Below are positions 6,213-44,261 of a DNA stretch of 64,000 bases, piece by piece (the stretch's first letter is position 1; each line of letters begins with the position of its first letter). Source of the DNA: Vicinamibacterales bacterium (GTDB lineage: Bacteria > Acidobacteriota > Vicinamibacteria > Vicinamibacterales > JAMQPK01); contig CAVSRX010000007.1 in the NCBI GenBank assembly GCA_963730445.1, positions 115,554 to 179,553 of the forward strand. Reading direction: 5' to 3'. Position numbers and translations under genes: made by a program. The notes below the pieces were generated by a model. The model was not told the origin of the DNA and searched no databases. It saw only the letters and a list, made by a program, of their open reading frames with translations.

Positions 6213-6954
6213 CGCGCTCCTCCGTAAATCCAGTCCGCGACCCGCGGATAGGACGACCCAAGTAACGGCTTCACCAATCCCTTTGCGTTCCACGCCGCCC
6301 ATTCCTTCGAACGCGCCCACGGCGCGCCTTGCACCAGCCGGCGCGCGAGATCTGCGGGCGCTCCGCTGCGAATCACGAAGCGTCCGGCAATCGCGCACCC
6401 GTCGATCGCACGCGCCGATCGAACCGGCTCCGAGTTGAACAACAGGAAGAGTCCCGACTCCGCCGCTGCACGGCCAACCTCTTTCGAGAAATAACCGCCA
6501 GGCACCGAGCCCGTCGTCACGGCGTGCCCGAGCACGTCCTCGAGCCGCTGGCGGCTCTCGGTCCACTCGCGGCGCATGTCCGCGCGGCTCAGCGCGCTGA
6601 ACCGAGTGGGATGCGACGCCGAGTGAGTGCCGATGACATGGCCGCGGGCATCGAGCTCGCGCACCTGCGCTGCATCGAGAAAGCCGGGCCGTCCGATGAA
6701 ATCCGTGGTCACGAAGCAGTACGCGTGCAACCCACGCGCTTCCAGCTTGTCTGCCACGATCGTGTAAAACGACACGCCGCCATCGTCGAAACGTCAATCG
6801 CGCCGCACGCACATCCGGCGCACCCGATTGCACCGAGTTGCGTCTCGAACTCGCGCAACGACAGCTTGTAGCGATCGGCGGCCGGCGAATTGAAGCCGCT
6901 CTCGCCGACGTCGCTCACGTAGACGTCATGAAACAGCAGCGATACTGGTTGCAT
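6209..6954 (-). pseudogene. polysaccharide deacetylase (NodB-like), one frameshift in this assembly
   Basis: The N-terminal part is ORF 6709..6954 (MQPVSLLFHDVYVSD..YKLSLREFETQLGAI..). The C-terminal part is ORF 6209..6775 (..FDDGGVSFYTIVADKLEARGLHAYCFV..HSASHP..). The two join at ..AIDV|FDDGG.. if one base is added to the AAA run at 6788-6790. Confidence 0.75.
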
Positions 6955-7761: not shown

Positions 7762-8962
7762 GCGTTGGCACTACCCCTTCGCAGTGCGCTTCGAACTCGC
7801 GGGCCACTTGCGGCCAGGAGTAGCGCTCAACCACGAGCGCCCGCCCGGCCTGGCCGAGTTCGTTTCGTCGCCCTTCGTCGTGCAAGAGGTGGACCACCGC
7901 TGCAGCGAAATCCTCGGGGTTGTCAGCTGCGATGAATTCTTTCTGGTCACTCAATGCGAGCCCCTCGGCTCCCACTGTCGTGGACACGACAGGCTTGGCC
8001 ATGCCGAGGGCTTCGAAAATTTTCATGCGCGTTCCGCTGCCGGCTCGCAGCGGCACGACATAGACCGCGGCTTCATCCAGGTACGGCCGCACATCGTCGA
8101 CGGTGCCCGTGACGATCATGCCGAGCCGCTCCGCCGCGTCGCGCAATTTCTGAGTGGGATTCCGCCCGACAATCGCGAACGACGCGTCGGGCACCTGCTC
8201 GCGGATTTTCGGCAGAATCGACTCGCCGAAATAAATGACGGCGTCCTCGTTCGGATGCCAGTCCATCGATCCGCTGAAGACGAGCCGCGCGGGAATCTGC
8301 GGCCGGCCGGCTGGCGCGAAATACGCCGTGTCGACGCCCGTTGGTATCGCGCCGGTTTTTGCGGCCGGCGCCATCTCGGCAAGGCGCGCGCGATCTTCCT
8401 CCGATACCGCGATCGTCAGATCGGCGCGGCTGCAGAGCTCGGATTCTTTGTTGCGCAGCTTGCGCCACTCGATCTCGAACAGCAGCTTCTTGATCGGATT
8501 GCGCTCGAGCGCGCTGAGCCGCTTCCAGATCAGGTACTCGACGTTGTGCTCGAACAGCACGACGGGAACTGTGCCGCCGAGCGGCACGTTCGCGGCCGCG
8601 AACAGAAAGTCGGACACGACGACGTCGATCTGATCTTTCTCGACGAGCGCCTGTACCGTGTCGCGCACTTCGGCGACGCGCCACTTCCAGAGATCCACGG
8701 GATACGACGAGAACCACGATCGCGCCACGGTCAGCGGAAACGCCGACGAGCCGCGCTTCGGCACGTCGTACGGAATCGACACGACCTGCTGGCAGTCGGG
8801 CAGCTGCCGGGCGAGCCCCTCGGGATCGTCGCCGGCCCCGTGCGTCGTCACGAGCGTGACTCTATGATGCCGGGACAGCGCCGACACGATCTGCAGGCTT
8901 CGCACTCGCCCGCCAGTCGTTGACGGCCACAGCCCGCCCATCTTGACCCAGAGGATTCGCAT
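7637..8962 (-). CDS. GT4-family (GT-B) glycosyltransferase
   Basis: Begins MRILWVKMGGLWPSTTGGRVRSLQIVSAL.. and contains ..VPLRAGSGTRMKIFEALGMAKPVVST (E-x7-E region). The last ~45 codons overlap the next gene. A 1-nt change in the C4 run at 7774-7777 would give ..EFEAHCEG-stop just before ATG 7761. Confidence 0.8.
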   Translation of the reverse strand: MRILWVKMGGLWPSTTGGRVRSLQIVSALSRHHRVTLVTTHGAGDDPEGLARQLPDCQQVVSIPYDVPKRGSSAFPLTVARSWFSSYPVDLWKWRVAEVRDTVQALVEKDQIDVVVSDFLFAAANVPLGGTVPVVLFEHNVEYLIWKRLSALERNPIKKLLFEIEWRKLRNKESELCSRADLTIAVSEEDRARLAEMAPAAKTGAIPTGVDTAYFAPAGRPQIPARLVFSGSMDWHPNEDAVIYFGESILPKIREQVPDASFAIVGRNPTQKLRDAAERLGMIVTGTVDDVRPYLDEAAVYVVPLRAGSGTRMKIFEALGMAKPVVSTTVGAEGLALSDQKEFIAADNPEDFAAAVVHLLHDEGRRNELGQAGRALVVERYSWPQVAREFEAHCEGVVPTHDEDEPADSRADMPRRRSPRHRGARVVARRHDEPGRPHRHF

Positions 8963-10881
8963 TCATCACCTGCATGACCGTTGCGGGGTCTTCGCCCTCG
9001 CAGAACATGCGCTGCCAGATTTCGAGATTCACCAGCAGCCACAACCGATCGCCGTGCTTGCCGCGCCCCGACCGGTGTTCGTCGGCCATGCGCGCAAGCG
9101 ACGCGCGATCGAAGTACCCGCGGCTCGTCGCGCGCGGGCCGAGCACGAACTCCTGCACGACCGGCCAGAAATCGTCACGCAGCCAGCGGCCGACCGGCAC
9201 CGGAAATCCCATCTTCTTGCGCGTGAGAATCTCGGCCGGAATGATGTCGCGCACCGCTTCGCGGAAGATCGCCTTGGTCTGCCACATGCGCACCTTGAGA
9301 TCGCTCGGCAGCGCGGCGACGTGCTCGACGAGCTCGTCGTCGAGAAACGGCACGCGGCTCTCGATCGAGGCCGCCATGCTCATCTGGTCCTGCTTCATCA
9401 GCAGCTCGTGCAGATACGTCTGCAGATCCGTGCGGCTCATGCGATCGAGGATGTCTCCCTCGGCGTCCGCATAGCACTGCATCTGCACGGCGTAGGGATC
9501 GCGGCGGGCGAGCATCTCAGGGCGCGAGAGCAGCGTCCGCTGCACATCCGCGGTATGCACGGCAAAGTTTTCGAGGAACAGGCTGCGGATGCCAGGATCG
9601 AGCGCGAGGAACGTCCGCTCGCCCACGCGTCCAAGCCGCGACGGCAGCGCCTGCACCATGCGGCGCACCTGAGTGCGCAGCGCCGCCGGCATCGCGGCCC
9701 AATACGGCCGCCCCAGTCTGTCGTTCCACATCGTCACGCGATAGCGGTTGTAGCCGAGGAACAGCTCGTCGGCGCCCTCGCCGGTCAGCACGACCTTGAC
9801 GTGGTTGCGCGCCAGCTTGGCGACGAAGTAGAGCGGCACGCTCGACGGAAACGCAATCGGCTCGTCTTCGTGCCACACGAGATGCGGCAGCGCTTCGAAG
9901 AAGTCGGACGGCGTGACCGTGACATCGCGGTGCTCGCGCCAATCGCGCTTGGCCACGGTCCGCGCGTACGGGAGCTCGTTCGCCTCTGCCTCTGCGAACC
10001 CGACAGAGAACGATTGGATCGGGATCGCGCACCTGCGCGAGACATCATGGCCGCGAGCGCGCTCGAATCGAGTCCGCCTGAGAGGAACACGCCGAGCGGC
10101 ACGTCGCTCATCAGGTGGCTTTCGACCGACGCTTCGAGGCGCGCGCGAAGGTCTTTCGCCTGCGCCTCGAACGGAATGTCGCGCACATCGCTCGAAGGGG
10201 CGGGCAGCTGCCAGTAGCGGCGTGTGCGAATCCCCTTCTCCGCCGACCAGGTGAGCACGTGACCCGGCAGCAGCTTCCGCACGCCGTGGAAGAACGTGTC
10301 GGCTCCCGACACGAAGCGCGTCGAGAGATACTCGGGCAGCACTTCTTCGTTGAAGGTCGCCCGAACGCAGCCCGAGGCGAAGAGCGACTTGATTTCCGAC
10401 CCGAACACGAGCTCGCTGCCCGTGCTGGCGTAGTAGAGCGGCTTGATGCCCAGCCGATCGCGCGCGAGCAGCAGCTCCTGCTTCTTCTTGTCCCAGATCG
10501 CGAAGGCGAACATCCCGTGCAGCTTCTCCACGCACGCGTCGCCGTCCTCTTCGTACAGATGGATGATCGTTTCGGTGTCGCACCGCGATGCGATAGCGGT
10601 GCCCCTTCGCCTCGAGGCCCGGCCGCAGTCGAGGCGTGGTTGTAGATCTCGCCGTTGAAGGCGATCCACACGCTGCCGTCCTCGTTGGTCATCGGCTGCT
10701 CGCCGGCCGAGCTGACGTCGACGATGGCGAGCCGCCGGTGCGCGAGGCCGACGGCACCGTCGATGAACAGACCGGCGCCGTCGGGACCGCGATGGCTCAA
10801 CACATCGCGCATCCGGCGGAGACGATCCACGTCGACGGGCTGACGCGGGTCGAAATGAGCGATGCCAGCAAAGCCACACAT
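8862..10881 (-). pseudogene. asnB: asparagine synthetase B-type glutamine amidotransferase (exosortase-locus type), at least 3 frameshifts
   Basis: MCGFAGIAH..NGEIYNH lies in the frame of ORF 10111..10881. [43 protein letters not shown] lies in the frame of ORF 9785..10879. IQSFSVGFAE..VLTGEGADELFLGY..DLQTYLHELLMKQDQMSMAASIESRVPFLD lies in the frame of ORF 8862..10583. Two shifts fall within ~60 nt at 10585-10640. The 3' end overlaps the next gene by ~100 nt, so the true stop is uncertain. Confidence 0.8.
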
Positions 10882-10887
10882 AGATTT

Positions 10888-10923
10888 ATCTACTGATCTA
10901 GAGATCTACTGATCTCGAGATCT
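10888..10923. repeat. AT-rich 16-nt direct repeat (ATCTACTGATCTNGAG x2 plus a partial copy), with two AGATCT sites
   Basis: atctactgatct at 10888-10899 recurs at 10904-10915. This is the only AT-rich patch in this part of the operon. It spans the heparinase-like stop (10906-10908) and the 24-nt spacer before the asnB ATG (10881). No SD-like motif precedes that ATG. Confidence 0.6.
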
Positions 10924-11333
10924 AAAGATGTCCGAGTCGTCGACGAAGACCGATTCGCGTCGATCCTCGAGCTCGATGCCAATCGGCAGATCGTGGTCGT
11001 CGAACAGCGCCGAGACGGCCGGCGCAGACGACCAATCGCCGCGCTGCGGCATCAACAGCGTGATGCTGCGCCACGGCAGCGGCGCTTTGGCCGCGTACAC
11101 CAGAGCGGCGCCGGTGTCCGCTGGCCGTAGTCGGCTCGACACCCAGCCGCGAATCGGCGCCAGCTCTCCGAGCTTCACGTGAGGCCTCATCGCAGCCGGT
11201 CGCGAACGACCCGATCCAGAACGTATTGCCGGCCGGCGTCTGCGCCCGCGCCCATCGATCGCGCACCGAGGGACACAGACATCGGCGCGAACTGAAATCC
11301 GAGATCGATTTGATGAAGGGCGATGTTCGTAGT

Positions 11334-11360
11334 GCCGACCTTGAGGTCGGCTGTCACATC
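11334..11360. repeat. REP-like hairpin element, copy 1 (GTTCGTAGTGCCGACCTTGAGGTCGGC)
   Basis: These 27 nt are identical to 16207-16233. The stem is GCCGACC/GGTCGGC with loop TTGA. It lies inside the heparinase-like coding sequence and is read as ..[25 protein letters not shown].. Confidence 0.8.
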
Positions 11361-13111
11361 GTCGACAACGACCCAATAATCCGGCTTCACGAACAGCACG
11401 CGGCGGCGATGCGTGATGCCGTCGTAACCGTCGTGGCTGGCGTCGACAAAATCGCACTCGGCATTGCGTGCGCCACTCGCGCACGTGCACGCGCGGACGT
11501 CCTCGCCAGCCGAACGGGCCTGTCGGTCTCGACCTGGTCGCAGCCGTCGATCATCACGGTGCTGTGCGCTGCCGTGCCGCGGAAGATAGTTGCGCCATTC
11601 CGTTTCCGGCGTGTAGCAGTAGGTGCCCGCATCGACGAGCACGGGCTCGCCAAAGGCCGAGCACTGGATGCTGAGCAGGTCGGCATGGCCGTGGCCGGCG
11701 CTGACCGGGCATCCGAGCGGGCCGACATCGACGATCATCTGGTGCGCATCGCGCTCCCATCCGGTTCTCATCACGGCGTAGCCGCCGGACGGAAACATCC
11801 GCGAGAGCACGCCGGCCGGTTTGCGAAGGCGGTCGCCGCCGCAAACGCGCGCACGCCTTCCGCGCCCATGAGCCACGGCACCTCCGGCGTCATGCCTTCC
11901 GCCGCCTCGGCCAAATCTCCGCCGCCCGAACATCGCCGCGGCCACGGCGAACACGCCGCGCGGATCGCACTGCCCTCGCTCGACGAGCGGCAGCAGGCGC
12001 CCGCCGTCGGCATCGCCGATCTCCGGCATCGCGCCGTCGGGCCTGTCGCACCGCAAGCAGGAAGTCGACCATGCGACGCACGTGGTCGCCGAGGTCCGCA
12101 GGCACCGGCACGCGGTTGCGCGCGGCGAGCAGCAGAAACTGCTGATAGGTTTCGACGGTGTAGCGGTGGTAACAGGTCGACCGCTCGAAGTGCACGCCGT
12201 CGGCGCAGATCTGCGTGCGGCTCTCGGCGATCAGCACGCGAGCGCCGAGCCGCCGCCAGCGCGCGCGTCCTTGAACTCGGAGAACAGCGTGCCTGCGTAG
12301 AACAGCCCGAGCGCCTCGCCCGTGAGGTGCGTGTTCGGCGAGAAGTAGAACGACAGGTATCGCGCGACGTAATGGGCGTGCAGCCACACGCCCGCGAGAA
12401 TTCCAGTCGAGCCGCTCGGCCGACAGCGCAGCGGATTCGCGAATCAGCATGCAGCGTCCAGGACCACGACATCAGCCGGTACGCCACTTCGAGACTGCTC
12501 GCCCAGTTGACCCCGATGCCGTGCGGGTTCGCCTCGATCCACGACTCGATCGCGCGAAGCGCGCTTTCGGCGTAGCGCTCGTCGCCGCTCACCGCATACG
12601 CCTGTGCGAGGCCGGACGAGCCACTGATGCCGATTCAGCTCCCAGACGACCTTGCTGTCGCCGACTTCCGCCGGGTCGAGCGGGTTCAACTGCGTCCAAT
12701 GCACGCGCGGCGCGCGGCGCGACCACACCGGATCGAGATGCCAGTCGATCGGATCGCCGAACCACAACGTCTGATAGCCAAGCAGGTCGAAGCGATGCTG
12801 CAGCGTCGCCGCCGCGCTGCTCAGCACCGCGTCGCGGTCCCCGGCAACCGCCTGAGCGACAAACTGAAGATTCTCGACTCCTGCGAAGAACCTCGACGGC
12901 GCCACCCGTCGGAGAATCTCGAGCGCCGCAGCAGGGTTGACGAACGCCGGCGCCTGATCGCGCAGGATCGTTGCAGGATCGACGGGTCGATCGACGGTCG
13001 TGACGCGATCGATCAGCTTCGCGGCTTCCTGTCGGCTGCGGCCCGCGATCTCGGCAACGGCATGCGTCCGCAACCGACGAAGCTTGTCGATGACGGACGC
13101 GCGGCCCGTGA

Positions 13112-13129
13112 GCCGACCTGAAGGTCGGC
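13112..13129. repeat. REP-like hairpin, variant copy (GCCGACC-TGAA-GGTCGGC)
   Basis: Same 7-bp stem as the 27-nt family with loop TGAA. It lies 35-52 nt downstream of the heparinase-like ATG (13164), next to the GAACCGG array. Confidence 0.7.
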
Positions 13130-13160
13130 ACGACGAGCGTCGGTTGTGCGGAGGTCTTGT

Positions 13161-14281
13161 TCATTGAACCGGCACCTCAGAACTTGAACCGGAACCGCAG
13201 AACCCGGAACCTGAACTCGGAACCGGCATAAACCGCGCTCCATTGGTCTCTGACTGCCCGCCACGTGTATTTGCCGAGCTCCGCGATGCGCCTGCTCCGC
13301 CATCTGCAGCGCGCGCTCGGGCCGGTTGAGCGGCGTCGGCGATCGCGCGCGCCATCGCGACCGGCGCTTCAGGCGGAACGATGACGCCGGTCTCGCCGTG
13401 GCGCACCATCGACGGGATGTCTCCCGTCGGCGTCGAGATGACCGGCAGACCCGAGGCGAACGCCTCGAGAATCGAGACCGGCTGGTTGTCGACGACCGAC
13501 GCGTTCAGGAAGATGTCCGAATCGGCGTAGAGCTTCGGCATCCACTCCGGGCGCCACCTTGCCGACGAACCGCACGCCGCCTGTCGTCAATTGCGCGGCC
13601 ATCGCGCGCAGCCGCGGCTCTTCGCTGCCGTAGCCGGCGATCGTCAGCGTCGCAGTCGGGACAGGTCTTCTGGAAGCGCGCGAACGCCTCGATGATGACG
13701 TCGACCCGGTAGTACGTCTCGAGGTTGCGCGTCGACAGCAGCCGCGGGCGCAGCGGCGGCGCTCGCGATAGTCGAACACGCGTCAGATCGACGACGTTCG
13801 GAATCACGCGCGCGCGATAGCCGTAACTTCGCGAACACGTCGCGCAGGTACTCCGACGGCACGACGATCTCGTCCGCCAGCCTCAGCCACGGGATGCACG
13901 AGCGCGCCCCAGTGCGCGAGATGATCGTCGGCCTCGCCGCTGTGGTAGTGCAGCACGACGCGCTTGTTGAACAGCCGCGCGGCCAGCATCGCCGGCACCG
14001 GCGCGAGCAGGAACGACGAGTACGACGCGGAGAACACGTGCACGACGTCGAGCGCGCGCGAGCCGCGACAGGCCGGGAACATACAGCGGCTGGTTCAGCG
14101 AGCGTGCGCAGCGTACGGCAGCCGCCGCATCCAGCGCAGGCCGCGCGGAAACCGCGGATTGATCGGGAACGAGCGCCGCATCGACTCCGTCGTCGCGCAG
14201 CGAGTCGCACGAGCGTCTGCGCCTGCACTCCCTGGCCGCCCGAGGATGTCGAGGCTCGCGGCGACAATCGGCGACACGCAT
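13161..14281 (-). pseudogene. GT4-family glycosyltransferase, multiple frameshifts
   Basis: Blocks lie in different frames. Examples: SPIVAASLDILG (ORF 14095..14277); GGQGVQAQTLVRL and PWLRLADEIVVPSEYLRDVFAK (frame of ORF 13644..14897); DVVHVFSASYSSFLLAPVPAMLAARLFNKRVVLHYHSGEADDHL (ORF 13804..14082); NLETYYRVDVIIEAFARFQK (ORF 13505..13807); LYADSDIFLNASVVDNQPVSILEAFASGLPVISTPTGDIPSMV (ORF 13161..13541). The start is ATG 14281 or GTG 14277. Confidence 0.65.
13166..13226. repeat. degenerate GAACCGG short tandem array
   Basis: gaaccgg..gaactt gaaccg gaaccg ca gaacccg gaacct gaactcg gaaccgg. It encodes the odd C-terminal tail ..PVPSSGSGFCGSGSSSEVPVQ of the GT4 gene. The 14-mer gaactcggaaccgg (13213-13226) recurs inverted at 16190-16203, beside hairpin copy 2. 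Confidence 0.7.
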
Positions 14282-16175
14282 CACGCGAGCCGCCTTCGGG
14301 CTTTCGAGGGGGACGTCGAGGAACCGGCGGCACCACAGCTCGAACGACAGAATCGTCCACAGGTGCAGATCGAGATCGCGGCCGCGCTGGTGCAGCCGCA
14401 GCAGCCGCTCGACGTAGCCGACGTCGAAGAATCCGCGCTGGCGGCAGGTGTCCGACAGCAGGATGTCGCGCGCGAATCCGAGCAGCTCGCCGCGGAACCA
14501 GCGCGCCAGCGGCACGGCGAAGCCCTGCTTCGCGCCGGTCGATGATGTCGTCGGGCAGCACGCCGCGCATCGCCTGCTTGAACAGGTATTTCGTGGTGTC
14601 CGTCGCGCAGCCGCAGGTTCGACGGAATCTGTCGCGGCGAACTCGACAAGGCGGTGATCGAGCAGCGGCGGCCGCGCCTCGATCGAGTGCGCCATGGTCA
14701 TGCGATCGACCTTGGTCAGGATGTCGAGCGGCAGATACGTCTGGAGATCGCAGTACTGCGCGGCCGACATCCAGTCGCGATCGCTCTGCGAGATACGACA
14801 GCCGATCGACCCACGGATCGAACCGCGACGATGTGCTCGAAGGCGCTCGTCTGGAACAGCTGCTCCATTTCGTCGGCGCGGAACAGCGTCGACGCATCGA
14901 GATAGCGCTGCGGGCCGTCGAGCGCGAGATGGCGCAGGAAGCGGCGGCCCCGCATGCCTTCCGGCATCGCGTCGCCGATCGCGCCCGCCATTCCCCGCAG
15001 CGCGGCCGGCACGCGGTCGTACTCGCGCTCGCGGCGCTCGACGACGTACTTGTCGTAGCCGGCGAAGAGCTCGTCGCCGCCGTCGCCGGTGAGCACGACC
15101 TTGACGTGCTCGGCCGCCAGCTTCGACACCATGTAGGTCGGAATCGCCGACGTGTCGCCGAACGGCTCGTCGAGATACCACGCGAGGTCCTCGACGATGC
15201 GACACGACGTCGGGCTTCAGCACGAGCTCGTGGTGCTCGGTGTCGAACGCCTTGGCCACTTTGCGCGCGTGCACCAGCTCGTCGAACCCGTCTTCGGCGA
15301 ACCCGATCGAGAACGTCTTGATCTGCGGCCCGGCTGCCTCGCCGCCATCGTCGCGACGACGGCGCTCGAATCGATGCCGCCGCTCAGGAACGCGCCGACC
15401 GGCACGTCGCTGATCTCGTGGAGCGGCGACGGACTCGGCGAGCAGCTCGCGCAGCTGCTCGACCAGCTCGCCTTCGGTTGACATCTCGTCGGGCTCGAAC
15501 TCGACGTCCCAGTAGCGCTCGATCCGCAGCGACGAGCCGCGCTCGGCCACCGCGAGGCGCGCCGGCTCGAGCTTCTTCACGCCGTCGACGATGCTCTGCG
15601 ACGGCCGGCGTCGCCAGGAACGTGAACAGATGGCTGACGCGCCTGCCAGTTGACGGTGCGATCGACCTCGGGCAGCGCGCAGGATCGGCTTCAGCTCGGA
15701 GGCGAACGCCAGCCGCCGTCGCGTCTCCGCGTAGTAGAGCGGCTTGATGCCCAGGCGATCGCGGGCCAGCAGCAGCCGCTTGTGCCGCGATGTCCCAGAT
15801 CGCGAACGCGAACATGCCGCGCAGCTGGTCGACGCACCGCGCGCCGTAGTCCTCGTAGAGGTGGACGATCGTTTCGGTGTCGCTGTCGGTGCGGAACGTG
15901 TGGCCGCGCGCGCTCGAGCTGCGCCGCAGCTCGCGGTAGTTGTAGATCTCGCCGTTGAACACGACCCAGACCGAGCCGTCCTCGTTGAGGACCGGCTGCT
16001 GGCCGCCCTCGAGGTCGATGATGCTGAGCCGGCGCATGCCGAGCCCGACGCCGCCGCCGACGTAGATGCCCTCGTCGTCGGGTCCGCGGTGCACCATCAT
16101 GCCGCACATCGAGCGGATCTCGTGCTCGAAGACGGGTTGACCGTCCCAGCGGATGATTCCGGCGATGCCGCACAT
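14281..16175 (-). pseudogene. asnB: second asparagine synthetase B-type amidotransferase, at least 8 frame switches
   Basis: [35 protein letters not shown] is in ORF 15384..16175. [15 protein letters not shown] and KTFSIGFAEDGFDE are in the frame of ORF 13883..15580. [16 protein letters not shown] is in ORF 15217..15405. KVVLTGDGGDELFAGY is in ORF 14716..15132. DLQTYLPLDILTKVDRMTMAHSIEARPP is in the frame of 13883..15580. TKYLFKQAMRGVLPDDII is in the frame of 13644..14897. The exact 3' end is uncertain. Confidence 0.75.
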
Positions 16176-16182
16176 AAGGGTT

Positions 16183-17702
16183 CTAATTTCCGGTTCCGAG
16201 TTCGACGTTCGTAGTGCCGACCTTGAGGTCGGCCGCGACGGACTTCACACGCACAACGGACGGCTTGCGGCGCTCCCAGCGAAATGCCGCATACGCGATC
16301 GCGGCATACACCGCCCAATACAAGGCGCCGGCTGCAACCAGCACGACCGGCCGCGGAAGCGTCGAGGTGCGGCTCAGCCAGTACGCCGGACCGGCCGCGG
16401 CGATGGCACAGAGCGCGATGCCTGCCAGATGGCGCGAACGGCAGAATATTCGTGAGCGGCGCCTTCAGCAGGTACGCGATCCGCCCGATGCTGATGATGC
16501 GCACGGCGGTCGTCGCCAGCAGCGTGACGAGCACGGCGCCGACCAGTCCGAACGTCGAGAGGCACCACGAGATGAGCGCCAACGACGAGGGCCAGCCGAG
16601 TCAGGTTCATCGCAAAGAGGAACCGCGTCTGCGCATACGCCCGCAGCACCGCGTCGACGCAGAACACCGCCGGAAGATCGTCAGCGTCCAGGCCATGAAG
16701 ATCGGCACGCTCGCGACATACTGCCGGTGAACAGCGTGATGATGACGTCGCGCGACAACAGCAGCAGCACGACGGCCAGCGGGAAGATGAGCAGCGCGAG
16801 GCGCGACATCGTGTCGTGCCACAGCTCGAGCGCGGTGCCCCGCTGCTCGTGCAGCCCGTCCTCGGCCATCTTCACCATCATCACGTTCGCGCGTCGACGT
16901 GGTGATGAGATCGACCAGCGGAATCTGCAGGCAGCCGACCGCGTAGATCGCGAACGTCGCCGCATCGAATTTCGACGCGACGACGTAGGGATGCAGGTTC
17001 GCCTGCAGCACTTCGATGCCGACCGCGAGCGCGAACGGCAGCGCGTAGGCCAGCTGGTACTTCCAGAGCGCGCGGTTCGGCCGCAGGTCTGCGCCGATAC
17101 TCGCGGCGCAGCCAGTGCAGCATCGCCACCACGCGGACCGCGCCGAATGCGACGCCGCCCCACAGGACCGCGCGCAGCCCGCCGTGCACGAACGCCGGAA
17201 TCACGAGCAGAATCGTCCGCGCGACGTCCGAGGCGCCATACGTCCAGGCCGCTGTCAGTATGCCGCTTGCGCGCGACCATCACGATCTCGAACGCGCGCG
17301 GAGACGAGCATCAACATCAGGAACGCGCCGAGCAGCACGATGTGGTCGGCGAGCTGCGGATTGCTCAGCCACGCGACGATGCGATCTTCAGCGATCCACA
17401 GCAGCCCGAGGCACGCCGATGCCGGCCAGGGCCAGCGTGATGAGCGCGTTCGCGATGTACGGCCCCGCCTCCTGCGGCTTGCGCGGCACGAAGTAGTAGA
17501 GGCTCTCGGCCATGCCGAATTGCGCGAGGCCGTACAGCGTGCCGTAGATCAGGAAGAGCTGCTTGTACGTGCCGAACTCCGCCTGGTTGAACGTGCGGAC
17601 CAGGAGCACGGGGATGATGAACGACGCCGCGAACCCGATGGTCCGGCCGACCACGAGCAGAAATGCGGGCTTCGAGATTGCGTCGCGGGTAAATCGGCTC
17701 AT
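16183..17702 (-). pseudogene. Wzx-like polysaccharide flippase (MOP superfamily), multiple frameshifts
   Basis: The N-terminus is MSRFTRDAISKPAFLLVVGRTIGFAASFIIPVLLVRTFNQAEFGTYKQLFLIYG (ORF 17388..17741, with an ATGA overlap at 17699-17702). Later hydrophobic blocks sit in ORFs 16681..17283, 16607..17011, 16374..16667 and 16097..16582. The last fragment ends ..[38 protein letters not shown] at 16183, so the tail is encoded by hairpin copy 2 plus the inverted GAACCGG motif. Confidence 0.6.
16207..16233. repeat. REP-like hairpin element, copy 2
   Basis: Exact 27-nt match to 11334-11360. It is preceded at 16190-16203 by ccggttccgagttc, the reverse complement of 13213-13226. Confidence 0.8.
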
Positions 17703-18796
17703 ACCTGATGGGTCCGCTCGCACCGCCGAGCCGGCGGCCACAAGTCGTGGATTTGACAGTTGAAGACAGCCGACGAAAATTCACCGTCGGCATCGATGGA
17801 CGAGCCTTCCCACAGGAGCAGACGCTCGAGCGTCAGCTCGGGATGCGTCGCATCACCGTGCGTGCACGCGGTATACGCGTACCGGTATCCGGCCTCGTGC
17901 AGCGCGCTCACGACTCCGGCGTTGAACTGGCCGCCGGGATACGCGAAATGATCGATCGGCTCGCCGAGCTCGGCTTCGAGCACGCGCTTCGATCCTTCGA
18001 GCTCTTCCTTCACGTCCGCCGGCTTTTCCAGCGGGAGACACACGTGGCTGCGGGTGTGCGACCCAATCGTGATGCCGCCACGCCGCATCTCGTGAATCAT
18101 TGGCCACGTGACGCTGAGCGGAATGTCGCTCGTCTCGGTGCCGACGCGTGTCTCAAGACAATCCATTAGGCGAAGCACATCTGCCTGCGGCAGGACAGGA
18201 AGCAAAGCGGATACCGCCGACATCGATGACGACAGCGATCCGCGGCGAAACATCTGTCCTGTTGGAATACGCAGTTCGGTCATCAGCTCGAACAGCCGGC
18301 GCCTCGGGTCGTCCCACGCGTTGAACGCCTTGTCGACGAGGTAGTACAGCCTGTCGTGCGTCTGCCAGAGCGGCCCGCCGATCAAATCTGTGACGACGAA
18401 CATGGCGGCCGGGATGCCCTTGCGGCGAAGGAACGGGAATGCGTTCTCATACACGTCTCGGTAGCCGTCGTCGAAGGTAATGGCGGCGACAGGCTCGGCG
18501 AACGGCTCGCCCCGCGACACGTGCTCGCCGATCTCGTCGAGGGAGACGAAGCGGAAGCTCTTGCCGATCGACTCAACGTGGCGCTCGAACATCGCCTGGC
18601 CGATGAGCATGCTCGGCATCTCGGTTTGCGATGCGGCCGCAAAGTCGGAGACCACGCGGTGGTATCCGAGAATCAGCGGACACCGCTGCTCGCGCGCCTT
18701 GCGCGCGTGCTGCTCGAGGCCGCACGCGCCCGCAATGGCGGACGCAAGAGCCGCTCTGAGATGCCAGCGCCAGCGGTCAGCTCGTTTGCGGGGCAT
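17699..18796 (-). CDS. polysaccharide deacetylase family protein
   Basis: ORF 17699..18985 trimmed to the ATG at 18796 (MPRKRADRW..). Motifs present: ILGYHRV, AITFDDGYRDVYENAFPFL, GSHTRSH and FAYPGG. Intact. Confidence 0.8.
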   Translation of the reverse strand: MPRKRADRWRWHLRAALASAIAGACGLEQHARKAREQRCPLILGYHRVVSDFAAASQTEMPSMLIGQAMFERHVESIGKSFRFVSLDEIGEHVSRGEPFAEPVAAITFDDGYRDVYENAFPFLRRKGIPAAMFVVTDLIGGPLWQTHDRLYYLVDKAFNAWDDPRRRLFELMTELRIPTGQMFRRGSLSSSMSAVSALLPVLPQADVLRLMDCLETRVGTETSDIPLSVTWPMIHEMRRGGITIGSHTRSHVCLPLEKPADVKEELEGSKRVLEAELGEPIDHFAYPGGQFNAGVVSALHEAGYRYAYTACTHGDATHPELTLERLLLWEGSSIDADGEFSSAVFNCQIHDLWPPARRCERTHQV

Positions 18797-19883
18797 GGGC
18801 AGATATGACGCGGCGCGCGAAGGCGCGCAAGGTACGTTCGGTTTCCAGCGCTCGCCGCTGCACGCGGCCGCCAAGACCGGCCGGAAAGACGTCGTAGCGC
18901 GCGAGCGGACGCTTCTCGCTCGTCCAGGCAGATTTGTAGGCTTCGCCGCCGTACAAGAGATCGAACTCAGCGAGCCCTTCCTCAATCGCTGCGCGAATGC
19001 TCATGTCGAGCACGGCGCGTCCGACACCGTGGGACTGGAACTGTGAATCGTAGCCGTGCTGATAGAAGTAGAAGCGCCCTTTGAACGAGATCCCGTACAT
19101 CACGCCGACAAGGCTGTCGTTCAAATGCAGCACGAAGAGACGCAGCATGCCGGCCCTTTGCAGACGATCGGTGACGTCGAGATGGAACTCGCGCAGGGCC
19201 GTCGTGTGAAATGCCGTTCCGCGGCTTCCGAAGCGCGCGCGATGGAAATCGAAGAGCTTTGCGAGCGCGTGCTGCCGCATCGCTTCGTCCGTGATCTGCT
19301 CGAACCGCATGGTGAAGTCCCGCTCGAGCGAGCGCAGACGGCGGCGAGTCGTGGCGCGATGCGCAGGACCAATCGTGGCAAGAAACGAATCCCACGAGTG
19401 CCCTGCAAGCCGAATGAACGGGCAAAAGCCGTCGGCCGCCGCGCGCACCGACCATCCGCTTTCGGCCAGCGGTGCCGCGAGTCTGGACAACGACGAGCTC
19501 GGCGGCAGGCGCACGAGGTGAAGCGCAGCGTCCTTCTGCTTGACGTAGTCGGCGAGCGCACGCATGGCTTCGAGCTCGTGTCCGCGGCGAACGATGGCAT
19601 CGAGGTAGTCCGACCCGGCGAAACCACTGCCCATCAGCTCGAAGCGCCACAAGAACGGCAGCCTCCCGCGTGATGCGCAGAAGGGCGCGATCGCCATCAG
19701 CTGGTTGCCGTCGCGCACTGCGACGATCGAAAGGCGGCGCGAGCCGCCGAGATGCGCCCACCACGCGTTGAGCCATTCCCATGTGAGGAACGGCGACTCA
19801 GCCGAGCTGGCCTCGACGAGCTCGGTCCACTCCGCGCGCAGGGCAGCAAACTGGCCGGCGTTATCGATGAGCTCGATCGTCAC
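18777..19883 (-). CDS. FemAB/CelD-like GNAT acyltransferase (PEP-CTERM-locus type)
   Basis: GTG 19883 forms a GTGA overlap with the upstream stop. The sequence reads VTIELIDNAGQFAALRAEWTELVEASSAESPFLTWEWLNAWW..YFYQHGYDSQF..GVGRAVLDMSIRAAIEEGLAEFDLLYGGEAYK. It is a paralog of 21007..22128. Confidence 0.7.
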   Translation of the reverse strand: MTIELIDNAGQFAALRAEWTELVEASSAESPFLTWEWLNAWWAHLGGSRRLSIVAVRDGNQLMAIAPFCASRGRLPFLWRFELMGSGFAGSDYLDAIVRRGHELEAMRALADYVKQKDAALHLVRLPPSSSLSRLAAPLAESGWSVRAAADGFCPFIRLAGHSWDSFLATIGPAHRATTRRRLRSLERDFTMRFEQITDEAMRQHALAKLFDFHRARFGSRGTAFHTTALREFHLDVTDRLQRAGMLRLFVLHLNDSLVGVMYGISFKGRFYFYQHGYDSQFQSHGVGRAVLDMSIRAAIEEGLAEFDLLYGGEAYKSAWTSEKRPLARYDVFPAGLGGRVQRRALETERTLRAFARRVISAHAPQTS

Positions 19884-21034
19884 GACATCCTCAGATTCAG
19901 CCGGGCGACCTGCTCGGCCACGTAGTCGATGTGCCGATCGGTGAGATCCTGGTGAATGGGCAGGCCAAGGACGTGCCGGCGCAGATACTGCGCGTTTTCG
20001 CCTTCGGCTTCGGCGCGACCGGCACCTTCGGCGCCGTGATTCCAGAATTCGAGCACGTCGATGTCGCAACTTCGCAGGACCTCTGCCGTTTCCTGTTTGT
20101 CCTCGACCAGAATCGGAAACAGCAGCGGGCAGACACCAATGGGAAGCTCGTCGTGCAGCGGGGTCACCTGTCCCGCGAGCTGCATCGCAAGCCGGCGATA
20201 GTTCGCCATGCGGCGGGTGCGCACCTCTTCGAAGTCGAGACGCTTCAGCAGGCGCGCCGAAATCTCCGACATCGCGAGATCGACATCGTCGATGTTGAAC
20301 CCGATGTCGCCGATCTTCGCGCGCGGCACGTCCATCGCGCCAACCGCCCGTCCCGCCGCGCGCTTCATCGACTCCATCGCAGCGCCGAGACTGTCCGATC
20401 GGCTTCGGATGTTTCGCACGACGAGCTCGGCCGTGCGGCCGAGCACCGACGGCAGTCCTGCCTGGCGAAGGCTGATGTGGTCGAGCCCGGCGAGGTGCGT
20501 GCCGTTCTCGACGAGACACGCGCCATTGGGCAGCGGCAGCGTCTTATAGAGACAGAACACCGAGAAGTGACCGAACGTCCCGAGCGGCTGCTCACCGGCA
20601 TCGCTCAAGAGCGCGAGCGCGCAGTCTTCGACGAGCCACATGCCGCGGCGGCGCGCGAGATCGGCGAACTGCCGAATCGGCTGCGGCCAACCGAGGTAAT
20701 GAATCACGTAGAGCACGTCAGGATGGTGCACCGCGCACAGGCGCTCGACTTCGGCCGCATCGGCCTGCCCATCGGGGCCGACCGGGTAATAGCGGATCGT
20801 GGCGCCTGCCGCCTCGAGCGCGAGCACTTCGTTGCCGCTGTTGTAATCGGGCACGAGAACCGTCAGCTGCTCGTTGGTCGACTTGAGCACTCGAAACAGG
20901 TGATAGATCGCATTCCTCGCGCGATAGAACGTGAGGTGCGGCACGTCGAACGGGTACCGGCGCGCCGTCGTTTTGCCGGACGCGGACAGCACGAAGTCGG
21001 TGGCGGTCAGGCCCTGGAAGGTTGGGATGAACAT
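19880..21034 (-). CDS. PLP-dependent aminotransferase (DegT/DnrJ/EryC1-like fold)
   Basis: ORF 19880..21457 trimmed to the ATG at 21034 (MFIPTFQG..). Contains ..VEDCALALLS..GHFSVFCLYKTLPLPNGACLV, a putative PLP-Lys context. Confidence 0.6.
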   Translation of the reverse strand: MFIPTFQGLTATDFVLSASGKTTARRYPFDVPHLTFYRARNAIYHLFRVLKSTNEQLTVLVPDYNSGNEVLALEAAGATIRYYPVGPDGQADAAEVERLCAVHHPDVLYVIHYLGWPQPIRQFADLARRRGMWLVEDCALALLSDAGEQPLGTFGHFSVFCLYKTLPLPNGACLVENGTHLAGLDHISLRQAGLPSVLGRTAELVVRNIRSRSDSLGAAMESMKRAAGRAVGAMDVPRAKIGDIGFNIDDVDLAMSEISARLLKRLDFEEVRTRRMANYRRLAMQLAGQVTPLHDELPIGVCPLLFPILVEDKQETAEVLRSCDIDVLEFWNHGAEGAGRAEAEGENAQYLRRHVLGLPIHQDLTDRHIDYVAEQVARLNLRMS

Positions 21035-22128
21035 GTCCGTCGTAACGCTGGAACGACTTGAAATTTCAGAGGATGAAGGAGCCGCCCTCGCGGCGTGCCG
21101 GCAAACACGAACAGCCAGTCGTGCGGGCGCGTGGTCGATGTCCACTCGAGCTTCCACGGTTCGGTGTCGCCAAGAAAATCGAATTCGCTGTAGCGCTTGT
21201 CGAACGCGTGCCGCAGCGCGAAATACGTGAGCATCTTGAAGGGCGAGCACTTCGCGAATTCCGGGTCGTACCCGGTCTTCAACAGGAAGAGCCTGTTCGC
21301 GTACACCGCTGCGTAGCACGCCGCGATACGGCGGCCGCCGACGGAAAGAAACATCAGGCGCAGCCAGGGGCACTCGTTCGCACGCTCGGTCATCAGCGTG
21401 TAGAAGCGCTGCACCGATTCGTCTGACGCGATCGCGGTGCCCTCGGTCGCCTTCCATCCCGAGTCTTCGAGCCGCTGCGCATCGGCCCGACCCGCGCCAA
21501 TCGCGTCGGCATCGTCAAGCACTTCAAGCGTGGGCTCACCGATCTGCGACAGACGGCCCAGCCTGTTTCGCAGGTTCCCCTTGAACTTCGAGCTCAGGCC
21601 GTTCATATACGCGTCCCACGTCGATGAGAGCTGCAGGTACGGAGCCGCGCCGCTCTCCCACACGCCTGTCTGCCGTCCCGCGGCCGCTGCAAACTGCCGG
21701 AACTTTTCGCGACTGCCCGAGTCGGCGGGCATCTGGCTCAGCTGAAGCACATCCCAGCGAGGGCCCGCATCCAGAACGGCATGCCACAGCGCACGGTAGG
21801 CATCTTCGACGTGGTCGGCCCCATCATTGACAACGATGACATCGGTGCGCGGCGTGTGATCGTTCTGCAGGAACCGCATGCGGCGGACGGGCATGCCATA
21901 CATCTGCGCGCGCTCGAACATGAGCGGCGCGATCGCGCACACGCGCGCGGCGTGGCGCACAACAAGAATGTTGAGCTGATGCGACTCGCCGAAGGCGTCC
22001 CACCACGTCCGCACCCACTCGTGGCGCAGAAAGGGATGCGCGATCGCGGCGCGATCGACCGCGTCGTTCCACTCCCCTTCGAGGGCCAGGAACGCGGCCT
22101 TATCGGAGACTAGGTCTACCGAGTACAT
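21007..22128 (-). CDS. FemAB/CelD-like GNAT acyltransferase, second copy
   Basis: ORF 21007..22254 trimmed to the ATG at 22128. The sequence reads MYSVDLVSDKAAFLALEGEWNDAVDRAAIAHPFLRHEWVRTWW..LFLLKTGYDPEFAKCSPFKMLTYFALRHAFDKRYSEFDFLGDTEPWK. Confidence 0.7.
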   Translation of the reverse strand: MYSVDLVSDKAAFLALEGEWNDAVDRAAIAHPFLRHEWVRTWWDAFGESHQLNILVVRHAARVCAIAPLMFERAQMYGMPVRRMRFLQNDHTPRTDVIVVNDGADHVEDAYRALWHAVLDAGPRWDVLQLSQMPADSGSREKFRQFAAAAGRQTGVWESGAAPYLQLSSTWDAYMNGLSSKFKGNLRNRLGRLSQIGEPTLEVLDDADAIGAGRADAQRLEDSGWKATEGTAIASDESVQRFYTLMTERANECPWLRLMFLSVGGRRIAACYAAVYANRLFLLKTGYDPEFAKCSPFKMLTYFALRHAFDKRYSEFDFLGDTEPWKLEWTSTTRPHDWLFVFAGTPRGRLLHPLKFQVVPALRRTCSSQPSRA

Positions 22129-23296
22129 GACTGAATCCTGCGGAGGTCTTCCGCTGTTTCCGCGCGAGCAGATCGAGGTACAGAGATTCGGTTGCGCGCA
22201 CCATCTTCTCGACAGAGTAACCATCGGCGATCGCTTTGCGCGAGGCGTCGCCAAGCCGGCGCGCGAGCGCCGGCTCGCTCAGCAGCCTTGCGACCGCCTC
22301 GGCGAGCGCCGTGGCATCGCCAGGCTCCACGATCAGGCCGGTCACTTCGTTGACGATGGCTTCTGGGGTACCTCCCACGCGCGTCGCGACGGTCGGGGCG
22401 CCGGCGGCCATCGATTCGAGCAGCACGTTCGACAACGCCTCGTTCAGCGACGGCATGACAGACACGGTCGCGCCGGCGAGCAGCGCGGGCACATCCTGTC
22501 GAAGGCCGGTGAAAATCACGCGATCGCTCAACCCCAGACGCTCGGTGAGCGCTTTCAGCGCGTCCTCGTACTCCCGCTCGGCGGGATTCGCATAGCCCAC
22601 TATCACGAAGCGCGCGTCCGGGAACCGGGGCGCGAGCATTTGTGCGGCTTCGAGAAATTGCTCGAGACCTTTCTGGCGCGTGAGGCGCGACACCACCATC
22701 ACCACCGGCGAGCCCGCAGCGATGCCGAGCTCGCGACGCACCCGCTCGGGATCGGGACGCTCGGAGAAGCGATCGAGCTCGACGCCGTTCGGAATGACGA
22801 CGATCTTCGCGGGGTCGTACCCTTCGCTCGTCAGCCAGTCCTTGACAGCCTCGGCATTCACGAGCACGCAATCGGCAAAGCGGCAAACGAATCGCTGCAC
22901 CCGCTTCTGCATCGGCGTGAGGTACGCCGCCCGGTCGCGAATCGACGCAATCACAACCGGCGTCCCCGCCAGCCGTGAGGGCAGAATCCCGAAGACGTTG
23001 CCGTAAAAGCTGTAGGCATGCATCACGTCGATGCGTTGCTTTGCCATGCGGCGCGCGAACTTCGTCATCTGCGCCACCGCTGCGAAACTGTAGAAGCCGG
23101 GGATGGGGTAATCGGACAGCGGGATACCGCGGTCGCTGAGTTCTTTGATGAACGGACCGATCCGGCGCAGGCACGCCACCTCGAGGCTGAACCCCTGCTC
23201 GTGGAGCGATCGCGCGAGCGTGATGGCCTGATTCTCGGTACCGCCGCACAACAGCGTCGGCACGATCTTCAATAGGCGAATCGGCGCTGTGTTCAT
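22100..23296 (-). CDS. GT4-family glycosyltransferase
   Basis: The 805-aa ORF 22100..24517 is trimmed to the ATG at 23296 (MNTAPIRLLKIVPTLLCGGTENQAITLARSL..). Contains ..VMPSLNEALSNVLLESMAAGAPTVATRVGGTPE. ATGA overlap with the upstream stop (23293-23296). Confidence 0.85.
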   Translation of the reverse strand: MNTAPIRLLKIVPTLLCGGTENQAITLARSLHEQGFSLEVACLRRIGPFIKELSDRGIPLSDYPIPGFYSFAAVAQMTKFARRMAKQRIDVMHAYSFYGNVFGILPSRLAGTPVVIASIRDRAAYLTPMQKRVQRFVCRFADCVLVNAEAVKDWLTSEGYDPAKIVVIPNGVELDRFSERPDPERVRRELGIAAGSPVVMVVSRLTRQKGLEQFLEAAQMLAPRFPDARFVIVGYANPAEREYEDALKALTERLGLSDRVIFTGLRQDVPALLAGATVSVMPSLNEALSNVLLESMAAGAPTVATRVGGTPEAIVNEVTGLIVEPGDATALAEAVARLLSEPALARRLGDASRKAIADGYSVEKMVRATESLYLDLLARKQRKTSAGFSHVLGRPSLR

Positions 23297-24657: not shown

Positions 24658-25601
24658 CAGACTCCGCCAGCTTCTTGCCGCTCATCCGGATTGGGCCGTC
24701 GAAGATCTCGACGTCGTGAAATCCGTTTTCGCGGAACCATCGGAAAATTTCGGGATAGAGATATTTGAACTGGTACTTCGGCGTGTACCAGTCGAACGTG
24801 TCGAGCCACCGCCAGCGCGCCTCGGGCTCCATCGAGATCGGCGCGGCGAGCTGGAAGAGCTTGCCGACGACCGGCACGCGATAGAGGTAGTAGAGCGGAA
24901 TCGCGACGGCCGAGAGCCCCCACATCACCTTCAGCGGCAGCCGCGTCGTCACATGGCGGATGGCGTCCGAGGCTTTGTGCGACGGGCCGTAGCGCGCATA
25001 CATGTAGACGGCGAGCTTGCCGCACGGCTTCACGGTGGCGGCAACGCGCGCGAACGCGCCGCGCGGGTCCGGCGTGTGGTGCAGCACGCCAATCGAGTAC
25101 GCCAGATCGAACGTGTCGTCGCGGAACGGCAGCGCGAAAATATCGGCCTGGAACAGATGCACGTTCGGCCGCGTGCCGATGTTTCGATACGCCGCATCCA
25201 CGGCCATCGTCAGATCGACGCCGAACACCTCGGCGCCCTTCGCCGATGCGCGATCGGCAAACCGTCCGGCGCCGACACCCGCGTCGAGCAGGCGGCTTCC
25301 CTGGAAATCCTTGTCGCTCCAGCCGGTCGCGCCGACGAGCGCCTGTTCGGACTCAGGCGACTCGTTGATCGAATCCAACTGAACGGTCCTGAACCAGTTC
25401 CACTGATAGCCGAAGCTCTGGGCGTAGGCATCCTGCGGCACGAAGCGCGGCACGCCTTTCGTAATCGGATAGACGTTGCCGCACGCGTTGCAGGTGAGCG
25501 TGCCTTCGATGATTTCGGCGGCTTCTTTCACGCTCGTCACGCAGCGCGAGCTCGCCTTTACAGTGCGGGCAGACGATGACGTCGAGCGCCGAGAGTTTCA
25601 T
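24617..25601 (-). pseudogene. Trm112-like zinc-ribbon plus class I SAM-dependent methyltransferase, one frameshift
   Basis: MKLSALDVIVCPHCKGELAL (ORF 25353..25601, ATG 25601, ATGA overlap with the upstream stop) and ..IIEGTLTCNACGNVYPITKGVPRFV (ORF 24617..25540) are the two halves of one CxxC..CxxC ribbon, split near 25535-25545. The SAM motif LLDAGVGAGRFA follows. Confidence 0.75.
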
Positions 25602-33813: not shown

Positions 33814-34174
33814 GGCTTCGCCCCCTTCGGTTTGCGATTTCCTTTTCTGAAATCGCCGGCCGCTGCCGAGTCGTATAAGTCGCGCTCTTCGTCTCCGCCT
33901 TCGCGGAAACGTTGACCGCGACCGTTTGGTTCGCGGACGACAGCCGACACTGCATTTTGTGTTCCCGATTTTCAGGAGTGATTGGAAAAGTCGGTGATTC
34001 GGCGGGCGAGTGTTTGCGAATCGATACAGATCATTGGAGATCGCGGAACGAAACAGCCGGAAAATATATTTGTCGCGCGGAACGAACTTGATCGCAAAAA
34101 GTGCCGCAAGTGGCGAACAGCGTTCAACTTGTATGCTTTTTGTGGTGTTCGGCCTGACCTCGTATGAAAAAGTA
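33814..34174 (-). promoter_or_regulatory. ~360-nt comparatively AT-rich leader/promoter region of the EPS operon
   Basis: This is the only long non-coding gap in the 32-kb locus, lying between the arsR stop (34175) and the NusG-like start. It contains A/T tracts (caaatatattttcc, cacaaaaagcatacaagttgaac on the minus strand). No promoter could be assigned confidently. Confidence 0.45.
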
Positions 34175-35482: not shown

Positions 35483-35512
35483 TTGGCACTGTTATGGCAG
35501 AGGGGCAAGGCC

Positions 35513-44242: not shown

Positions 44243-44261
44243 CTTAGAATCAATCACTTAA

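Follow-up and report, generated by a model that had tools for sequence, protein, structure and literature searches.

Frameshifting indels clustered in a putative exopolysaccharide locus of a Vicinamibacterales bacterium are very probably sequencing or assembly errors

Introduction

Within the window, the whole 64-kb stretch of DNA analyzed here, which derives from a soil acidobacterium, a run of adjacent genes with predicted roles in exopolysaccharide (EPS) synthesis is broken into many short reading frames, which raises the question of whether the organism has lost these genes or whether the sequence is wrong. The initial annotation, made from the sequence alone, had placed four such genes at 10906–17702, estimated ~25–30 frame switches and leaned towards consensus error, with genuine pseudogenization of part of the locus as the other option. 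Small-indel frameshifts are a known problem of long-read assemblies, in which errors can survive polishing locally (10.1101/2021.08.23.457338, PMC8812927), and errors in homopolymer length are reported as the commonest type to remain in such assemblies (PMC8812927).

Results

Frameshift mapping against intact orthologues

The search for orthologous loci was anchored on the polysaccharide deacetylase gene, which lies intact immediately right of the broken region; its best match in the genome scan had 73% amino acid identity. Nucleotide references were short-read metagenome contigs, denoted L007 (90.1% nucleotide identity), L006 (91.8%), L009 (89.1%) and L010 (86.1%). With 86–92% nucleotide identity, these closest references belong to different species. 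A same-species copy was sought with a window-specific exact 27-mer, which had no match in metagenome contigs, and with the exact glmS product, for which no database record was found. Five independent assemblies (L001, L003, L007, L008 and L009/L010) carried the orthologues intact and in collinear order. The same five genes were collinear in L001, L003 and L007, and L008 (79.5% nucleotide identity) was collinear over 21048–10125. By this collinearity in L001, L003, L007 and L008, the EPS segment is not hypervariable in gene content.

Shifts were mapped with our own frameshift-aware dynamic-programming alignment of proteins to DNA. This replaced plain tblastn, which was rejected for counting because its high-scoring segment pairs crossed wrong frames in the high-GC sequence and shifts were under-counted. 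The affected genes and their neighborhood are as follows.

8865–10881, minus strand: asnB1, paralogous amidotransferase; 6 indels in the 5′ half, 3′ half clean
10906–13164, minus strand: heparinase II/III-like (alginate-lyase-like) gene; 17 indels (14 insertions, 3 deletions)
13177–14281, minus strand: GT4-family glycosyltransferase; 15 indels (14 insertions, 1 deletion)
14281–16175, minus strand: asnB2, glutamine-hydrolysing asparagine synthase-like amidotransferase; 12 indels (11 insertions, 1 deletion)
16183–17702, minus strand: polysaccharide flippase (Polysacc_synt_3); 9 indels (7 insertions, 2 deletions)
17699–18790, minus strand: polysaccharide deacetylase; first intact gene right of the block
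9934–17420, no strand assigned: error-dense block; 59 frameshifting indels of 1–2 nt in ~7.5 kb

Alignment to the intact, syntenic Vicinamibacterales orthologues identified 53 frameshifting indels in 10906–17702 and confirmed that the conserved blocks of the four proteins are scattered over all three minus frames; the estimate of ~25–30 was, thus, about twofold too low. By nucleotide alignment, the 53 comprised 17 in the heparinase-like gene, 15 in the GT4 gene, 12 in asnB2 and 9 in the flippase gene; frameshift-aware protein-to-DNA counts against L001 and L003 were 15–17, 15, 12–13 and 9, respectively. Insertions in the heparinase-like gene included one of 2 nt, and 13066/13056 formed a compensating pair. 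A further shift pair, 11338/11310, was not counted, as it reflects natural 3-nt length variation in a variable loop. Two additional indels beyond the 53 lay in the repetitive 3′ tail of the GT4 gene, where a GTTCCGG-like tandem repeat shows a 7+1 nt difference from L007. Flippase indels mapped to 17419, 17297, 17259, 17097, 16891, 16722, 16676, 16578 and 16433.

The neighboring asnB1 gene carried six more indels (10630, 10590, 10036, 10020, 9947 and 9934), and the affected block, therefore, spans ~9934–17420. The initially annotated dense region was confirmed, but its left boundary had been set ~1 kb too far right, missing the six asnB1 indels within 9934–10630. This left edge lies inside asnB1 and not at a gene border. 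The right edge is sharp, with the final indel at 17419 and none from there to 18593, within the deacetylase gene, against L010 or to 26291 against L001 and L003. Orthologue alignments revealed no indels in 7778–9934 or in 17420–26291, and the ~14-kb flank at 17.7–31.4 kb contained just two shifts, at 26291 and 31131. Across 7778–31413, 53 of 61 orthologue-verified shifts fell within 29% of the span (binomial P = 4e-21), bearing out the strongly non-uniform distribution proposed earlier.

Outside the orthologue-covered span, the background rate was estimated from a codon-usage Viterbi model and a few Pfam checks. Segments were long and unbroken over 49–61.4 kb, in agreement with the earlier description of 49–61.5 kb as uninterrupted. 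Candidate shifts were noted near 32.8 kb, 35.5 kb and 43.0 kb. In the region of the 53 indels, the same segmentation likewise yielded ~27 pieces, because closely spaced shifts are invisible without a reference.

An insertion-dominated signature outside homopolymers

The 59 block indels comprised 51 insertions and 8 deletions (P = 9e-9 for the insertion excess). Their spacing (mean 129 nt, coefficient of variation 1.03) fits a Poisson process, and insertion codon phases of 18/14/9 did not differ significantly from uniform (chi-square calculated by hand). Only 7 of 41 insertions adjoined an identical base, compared to 22 expected (P ~1e-6), indicating that homopolymers are avoided, and 24 of 33 G/C insertions created a CpG, compared to 11 expected (P ~5e-6). 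Within 3 nt of a shift, the longest homopolymer run had a mean length of 1.89, against a null value of 1.99. No conserved sequence or structure marked the indel sites, for which phase and spacing were random.

Isolated shifts had been described as sitting in short homopolymer runs, an observation taken to favor consensus error. This description did not hold: at 31131, the extra base is an A flanked by G and C, and run lengths were close to the null value. In the block itself, homopolymer avoidance together with CpG creation means that the homopolymer argument fails. Accordingly, homopolymer-length error of the type typical of nanopore, 454 or Ion Torrent residuals was rejected as a source, as the indels are not in homopolymer runs. 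Repeat-driven misassembly was likewise discarded, given that asnB1 and asnB2 share only 71–83% identity over stretches of <100 nt, too little for collapse.

Repaired genes are complete and under purifying selection

Undoing just the 1–2-nt indels yielded four full-length single ORFs with zero internal stops; the corrections were guided by references of other species (86–92% nucleotide identity). For each repaired protein, the match to its Pfam or NCBIfam model ran end to end. The repaired flippase (503–504 aa) covered positions 2–293 of 293 in PF13440 and was 82% identical to L001 and 93% to L009 at the amino acid level. Repaired asnB2 (~626–630 aa) and asnB1 scored 524 and 520 bits, respectively, against TIGR01536 (asparagine synthase, glutamine-hydrolysing), exceeding the cut-off of 267 over model positions 1–517 of 517. 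The GT4 protein matched Glyco_transf_4 and Glycos_transf_1. Repaired to ~750 aa, the heparinase-like protein scored 145.5 bits with PF16889 (Hepar_II_III_N) and 150.9 bits with PF07940 (Hepar_II_III_C), above the gathering score; by its domains the product is a heparinase II/III-like protein with putative lyase activity. Its best database match, P0001 (749 aa), is intact and aligns along 100% of the query with 90% identity, and the top 120 homologues measured ~710–780 aa save for a few truncated or fused entries.

Selection appeared undiminished. Values of dN/dS relative to L007 were 0.089 for asnB2, 0.18 for the GT4 gene and 0.22 for the heparinase-like gene, compared to 0.11 for the largely clean asnB1. 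Amino acid changes specific to the window (25) were not in excess over those specific to L007 (21), and the repaired heparinase-like protein had one private change at columns otherwise invariant among 60 homologues, within the range of 0–3 for intact homologues. The 2,231 codons of the repaired genes contained no nonsense codons, whereas 5–16 new stops would be expected if the 53 indels were real and accompanied by 3–10 substitutions each (P = 0.009 to 1.5e-7). Nucleotide alignments showed no larger deletions; longer gaps were only in frame or within the repeat tail or a spacer.

Discussion

Because repair restores the ORFs, selection is intact, orthologues are intact, the signature is unlike mutation and the boundary is sharp, we conclude that the frameshifts are very probably sequencing or assembly errors and not biology. 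The lean of the initial annotation towards consensus error is, thus, strongly supported by repair without stops, dN/dS values of 0.09–0.22 and the preponderance of insertions. The asnB1, heparinase-like, GT4, asnB2 and flippase genes of the putative EPS locus would then be intact and functional in the organism; on the sequence evidence, their intactness is almost certain.

On this evidence, the consensus is far less accurate in a discrete ~7.5-kb block (~9.93–17.42 kb) than elsewhere in the contig: single bases were added at random positions at ~0.7% per base, deletions occur at ~0.1% per base and substitution errors are not detectably raised. Probably, the block is supported by few or noisy long reads or was missed by polishing. 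Reduced coverage, or a patch bridging a strain-variable EPS region, could underlie it, in which case the flanks would have deeper or more accurate support. The cause put forward in the initial annotation, read support that is low or strain-heterogeneous in a variable EPS segment, is plausible, with the caveat that the segment is not hypervariable in gene content. Confinement of the errors to 7.5 kb of the 64-kb window requires such a patch or coverage drop as an added assumption. The avoidance of identical bases suggests spurious non-cognate calls, a run-length-encoded consensus or alleles of polymorphic sites merged side by side. Merged synonymous-SNP alleles would favor third codon positions; the observed phases, not significantly different from uniform, speak neither for nor against this idea.

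The data resemble the indel errors that remain in long-read or hybrid (meta)genome assemblies and that frameshift correctors and polishers such as proovframe and Polypolish address, in that single-base indels split ORFs, the fragments still match full-length homologues and reference-guided removal restores the genes. They differ from typical residual errors in being 86% insertions, homopolymer-avoiding and CpG-creating, and from contig-wide errors in being limited to a single 7.5-kb block with sharp edges, at ~0.8% per base.

EPS loci tend to be variable and dispensable, and bacterial gene decay is deletion-biased. Genuine, very recent pseudogenization, in which real indels inactivated five adjacent EPS genes in this lineage, would account for ORFs that are disrupted as they stand and for damage limited to one contiguous, co-oriented gene set, and genuine bacterial pseudogene clusters likewise feature several adjacent genes, each interrupted many times. 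Unlike such clusters, this locus lacks nonsense codons, relaxed selection, a lineage-specific substitution excess and larger deletions, its 51 insertions against 8 deletions run opposite to the deletion bias, and indels vastly outnumber extra substitutions. Pseudogenization would need 12–17 independent hits per gene essentially without accompanying substitutions, an indel-to-substitution ratio opposite to any spontaneous spectrum known to us, and the block edge cuts through asnB1 instead of following a gene border. We regard this option as very unlikely and, in effect, excluded. Frames that remain perfectly conserved and under purifying selection despite their interruptions are also what a recoding system would predict, in which extra bases are real but are removed by RNA-level deletion editing or bypassed by massive programmed frameshifting to give full-length proteins; the context bias of the insertions, with its CpG creation, points the same way. 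We know of no such system in bacteria, relatives L001, L003 and L007–L010 have the same genes without the extra bases, similar extra bases occur sporadically elsewhere in the window (26291 and 31131), the block border falls within a gene and the sites share no conserved sequence or structure, with random codon phase and spacing. Recoding of this kind is exceedingly improbable. The broader claim that the ~59 bases are real and are removed from RNA or skipped in translation, together with its weaker variant of an extremely recent local burst of +1 insertions from a mutational process favoring CpG creation, is highly improbable as well; if true, such removal or skipping would parallel, in a bacterium and on one EPS operon, the insertion/deletion editing of organelles. 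Lastly, divergent orthologues and a GC content of 65–69%, which generates many long spurious off-frame ORFs, could have produced apparent shifts by alignment alone, as plain tblastn hits passing through wrong frames illustrate. This reading, to which we assign next to no probability, is already refuted by controls: six independent references gave the same positions at the protein and nucleotide levels, residues flanking each junction are conserved on both sides, the same method gave 0–1 shifts per gene in 11 flanking genes and the sole spurious pair, 11310/11338, was spotted and removed.

In the genes present and in their order, the locus resembles XrtA/PEP-CTERM-type EPS loci, which encode AsnB-like amidotransferases in pairs together with GT4 transferases, a heparinase II/III-like protein, a deacetylase, FemAB-like proteins and a flippase, and asnB1 and asnB2 match TIGR03108 (XrtA/PEP-CTERM amidotransferase) end to end. 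Membership is not established by these models, as all matches lie below trusted cut-offs (551.3 bits for asnB1 and 650.5 for asnB2 against 816.9 for TIGR03108; 246 against 317 for the upstream glycosyltransferase and TIGR03087).

The finding is a quality flag and annotation warning rather than biology. The signature (insertion-dominated, homopolymer-avoiding, CpG-creating and sharply bounded) may help to trace the failed assembly step, and the corrected protein sequences are usable in comparative work. Automatic annotation would render five adjacent EPS genes as ~30–60 fragments or pseudogenes, wrongly hinting that this Vicinamibacterales bacterium has lost the ability to make exopolysaccharide and inflating pseudogene counts.

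A conserved exopolysaccharide-type locus

The minus strand of the window (GC 60-69%) bears an exopolysaccharide (EPS)-type locus. Using the intact deacetylase gene at 17699-18790 as an anchor for a genome scan, we found syntenic loci in two Vicinamibacterales MAGs (Acidobacteriota), termed L001 (73% aa) and L003 (68% aa). In both, five single ORFs come after the deacetylase, and the window matches them gene for gene and in order. The comparison with orthologous loci proposed in the initial annotation thus finds intact counterparts for every gene of the block.

Genes of the block, their counterparts in L001 and L003 and frameshifts detected by protein-to-DNA alignment
~17702-16183, minus: flippase (ORF 1 after the deacetylase, ~505 aa); 9 frameshifts
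~16175-14281, minus: asnB2, AsnB-like amidotransferase (ORF 2, ~630 aa); 12-13 frameshifts
~14281-13177, minus: GT4 glycosyltransferase (ORF 3); 15 frameshifts
~13164-10906, minus: heparinase II/III-like protein (ORF 4, ~750 aa); 15-17 frameshifts
~10881-8865, minus: asnB1, second AsnB-like protein (ORF 5, ~675 aa); 3 frameshifts

Closer relatives came from metagenomes. A protein search with the heparinase-like sequence repaired in silico returned thousands of full-length relatives, including an intact 749-aa protein (P0001; 90% identity, 100% coverage) whose contig, L006, is collinear with the window at 91.8% nucleotide identity. A 6.8-kb MEGAHIT contig, L007, is likewise collinear (90.1%) and carries asnB2, GT4, heparinase-like and asnB1 genes, all intact, while the flippase region is matched by the collinear JGI contigs L009 (89.1%) and L010 (86.1%). 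The locus is similar to EPS loci of the XrtA/PEP-CTERM type, but its proteins score under the cut-offs of the NCBIfam models specific to that system, and it was therefore not classed as a member.

Extent and density of the frameshifts

Three-frame translation spread protein-like pieces of each gene across all three minus frames, and the GC3 frame plot changed phase every 100-500 nt in 10.9-17.7 kb but held steady over 1-2 kb stretches elsewhere, confirming the scatter of conserved blocks initially described. Because ordinary tblastn passed through wrong frames, we built a custom protein-to-DNA aligner with explicit frameshift states and ran it on every orthologue pair in 7.7-31.4 kb. Eleven flanking genes had 0 or 1 frameshift each. 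True shifts lie at 26291 and 31131; a further two calls were discarded because they fell upstream of start codons.

At the nucleotide level, 53 frameshifting indels were counted in 10906-17702 (heparinase-like 17, GT4 15, asnB2 12, flippase 9), and the repetitive GT4 tail holds two beyond these. The initial estimate of ~25-30 frame switches agrees with a reference-free codon-usage Viterbi segmentation (27 pieces), but the orthologue-aligned count is about twice as high. The same segmentation gave long unbroken segments over 49-61.4 kb, in line with the uninterrupted ORFs reported there. The uneven distribution also stood: 29% of the span examined holds 53/61 verified events (P = 4e-21).

The start at 10906 had to be revised. 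Six single-base indels (10630, 10590, 10036, 10020, 9947 and 9934) were resolved in asnB1; two of them, an insertion and a deletion 13 nt apart, compensate each other, and the gene is clean over its 3' half. The left border therefore lies inside asnB1, and the block really spans ~9934-17420; its 59 events are on average 129 nt apart. Its right border is sharp: the final event is at 17419, followed by none to 18593 against L010 and none to 26291 against L001 and L003.

Error signature

Insertions predominate among the 59 events (51 versus 8 deletions; P = 9e-9), and their spacing (CV 1.03) is compatible with a Poisson process. For 41 resolved single-base insertions (C 19, G 14, A 5, T 3), codon phases were 18/14/9, with no significant departure from uniform in a hand-computed chi-square. 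Only 7/41 lie beside an identical base, where random insertion would give 22 (P ~1e-6), and a CpG arises from 24/33 G/C insertions, compared with 11 expected (P ~5e-6). Seven further flippase insertions follow this pattern (0/7 beside an identical base; 4/4 G/C insertions creating CpG). Homopolymer runs near shifts do not exceed in length those around random positions (1.89 versus 1.99), so the homopolymer argument originally offered for consensus error fails, and the signature differs from the usual homopolymer-length error type. Substitution errors showed no detectable rise, asnB2 dN being only 0.004 above that of asnB1.

The shifts at 26291 and 31131 are lone single-base insertions disrupting two conserved genes, whose orthologues lie at 5417-6535 and 766-2346 in L001; the one at 31131 places an A between G and C, outside a homopolymer. 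Both resemble the process seen in the block, acting at low density. The codon-usage model also points to possible frameshifts at ~32800 (ORF pair 32402-33955 / 32088-32774), at ~35450-35900 near the ppk 5' part (PP_kinase_N matched only at positions 1-56 of 107) and at ~42990, where a fragment of an ATP-dependent DNA ligase (42891-43457) covers domain positions 19-150 of 204.

Selection on the repaired genes

Removing 1-2 nt indels with L007 as guide restored single ORFs for asnB2, GT4, heparinase-like and asnB1 genes, and the corrected sequences contain no internal stops in 2231 codons. Were the 53 indels real, ~5 new stops would be expected at 3 substitutions per indel and ~16 at 10 per indel, these ratios being assumed from what is generally known of bacterial mutation spectra. 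Matches over threshold run end to end in the repaired heparinase-like protein (Hepar_II_III_N and Hepar_II_III_C), GT4 (Glyco_transf_4 and Glycos_transf_1), flippase (Polysacc_synt_3) and both AsnB-like proteins (TIGR01536). Relaxed selection, raised in the initial annotation, was not seen: dN/dS against L007 was 0.089 for asnB2, 0.18 for GT4 and 0.22 for the heparinase-like gene, compared with 0.11 for the mostly clean asnB1. Four-way alignments of the three dense genes gave 25 lineage-specific amino-acid changes in the window versus 21 in intact L007, and in a set of 60 heparinase-like homologues the repaired protein differs privately at one otherwise invariant column, versus 0-3 for intact homologues.

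The five genes are thus not decaying. Genuine pseudogenisation, one of two options initially put forward, is rejected, as every selection test speaks against it and the indel bias runs in the wrong direction. Recoding or editing that bypasses the extra bases during expression is very unlikely and finds no support: these bases are missing in relatives, their sites lack a marking motif and similar ones are scattered over other parts of the window. Nor are the shifts an alignment artefact, which the clean controls and six independent references exclude.

Repeats and neighbouring features

A 31-nt sequence with a perfect hairpin (GCCGACC-TTGA-GGTCGGC) is present in three copies, always within the error-dense block (4 matches versus 0.03 expected).

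Copies of the 31-nt hairpin sequence
11321-11352, +: variable loop of the heparinase-like gene
13111-13142, inverted: first codons of the heparinase-like gene
16203-16233, +: last codons of the flippase gene

The exact palindrome was not found in loci L001-L007, nor a 27-mer of the sequence in JGI metagenome contigs; in L007 the heparinase-like loop holds another hairpin, similar in length. The GT4 3' tail is a GTTCCGG-like tandem repeat (13164-13226), 7+1 nt short of that in L007, so that GT4 stops at ~13177 without overlapping the heparinase-like ATG; the shortfall may be natural variation of the repeat or belong to the error block. The short asnB1/heparinase-like spacer (10888-10929) contains a 16-nt palindromic tandem (ATCTACTGATCTAGAG, 2.3 copies).

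Elsewhere, 44166-47678 is probably a mobile element integrated at a tRNA gene, with a low-GC segment (56-59% versus ~64%) following the tRNA.

Features of 44166-47678
44166-44242: tRNA-Pro(TGG)
44340-45251: DUF3854 protein, in the low-GC segment
46725-47678: tyrosine recombinase, in the low-GC segment

A single ORF of 1426 aa at 57293-61573 encodes a subtilase S8 domain together with an fn3 domain and four CARDB repeats; ~460 N-terminal residues are without a domain match. The initial annotation suspected here a fusion created by an indel at 58441-58442.

Interpretation

The block consists of Poisson-distributed, insertion-dominated, context-biased single-base events that cross gene borders, and the genes beneath are under normal purifying selection. 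It is a consensus-quality problem, not biology, and the initial suggestion of consensus error is upheld by the intact repaired genes, purifying selection and indel signature. Reports on long-read data describe small indels that fragment genes and errors that can outlast polishing locally (10.1101/2021.08.23.457338; PMC8812927). The cause would be a low-support or unpolished block, possibly reflecting falling coverage or a bridging patch across a strain-variable EPS region; spurious non-cognate calls, a run-length-encoded consensus or side-by-side allele merging may account for the scarcity of insertions next to identical bases. The block is of little interest except as an annotation warning.
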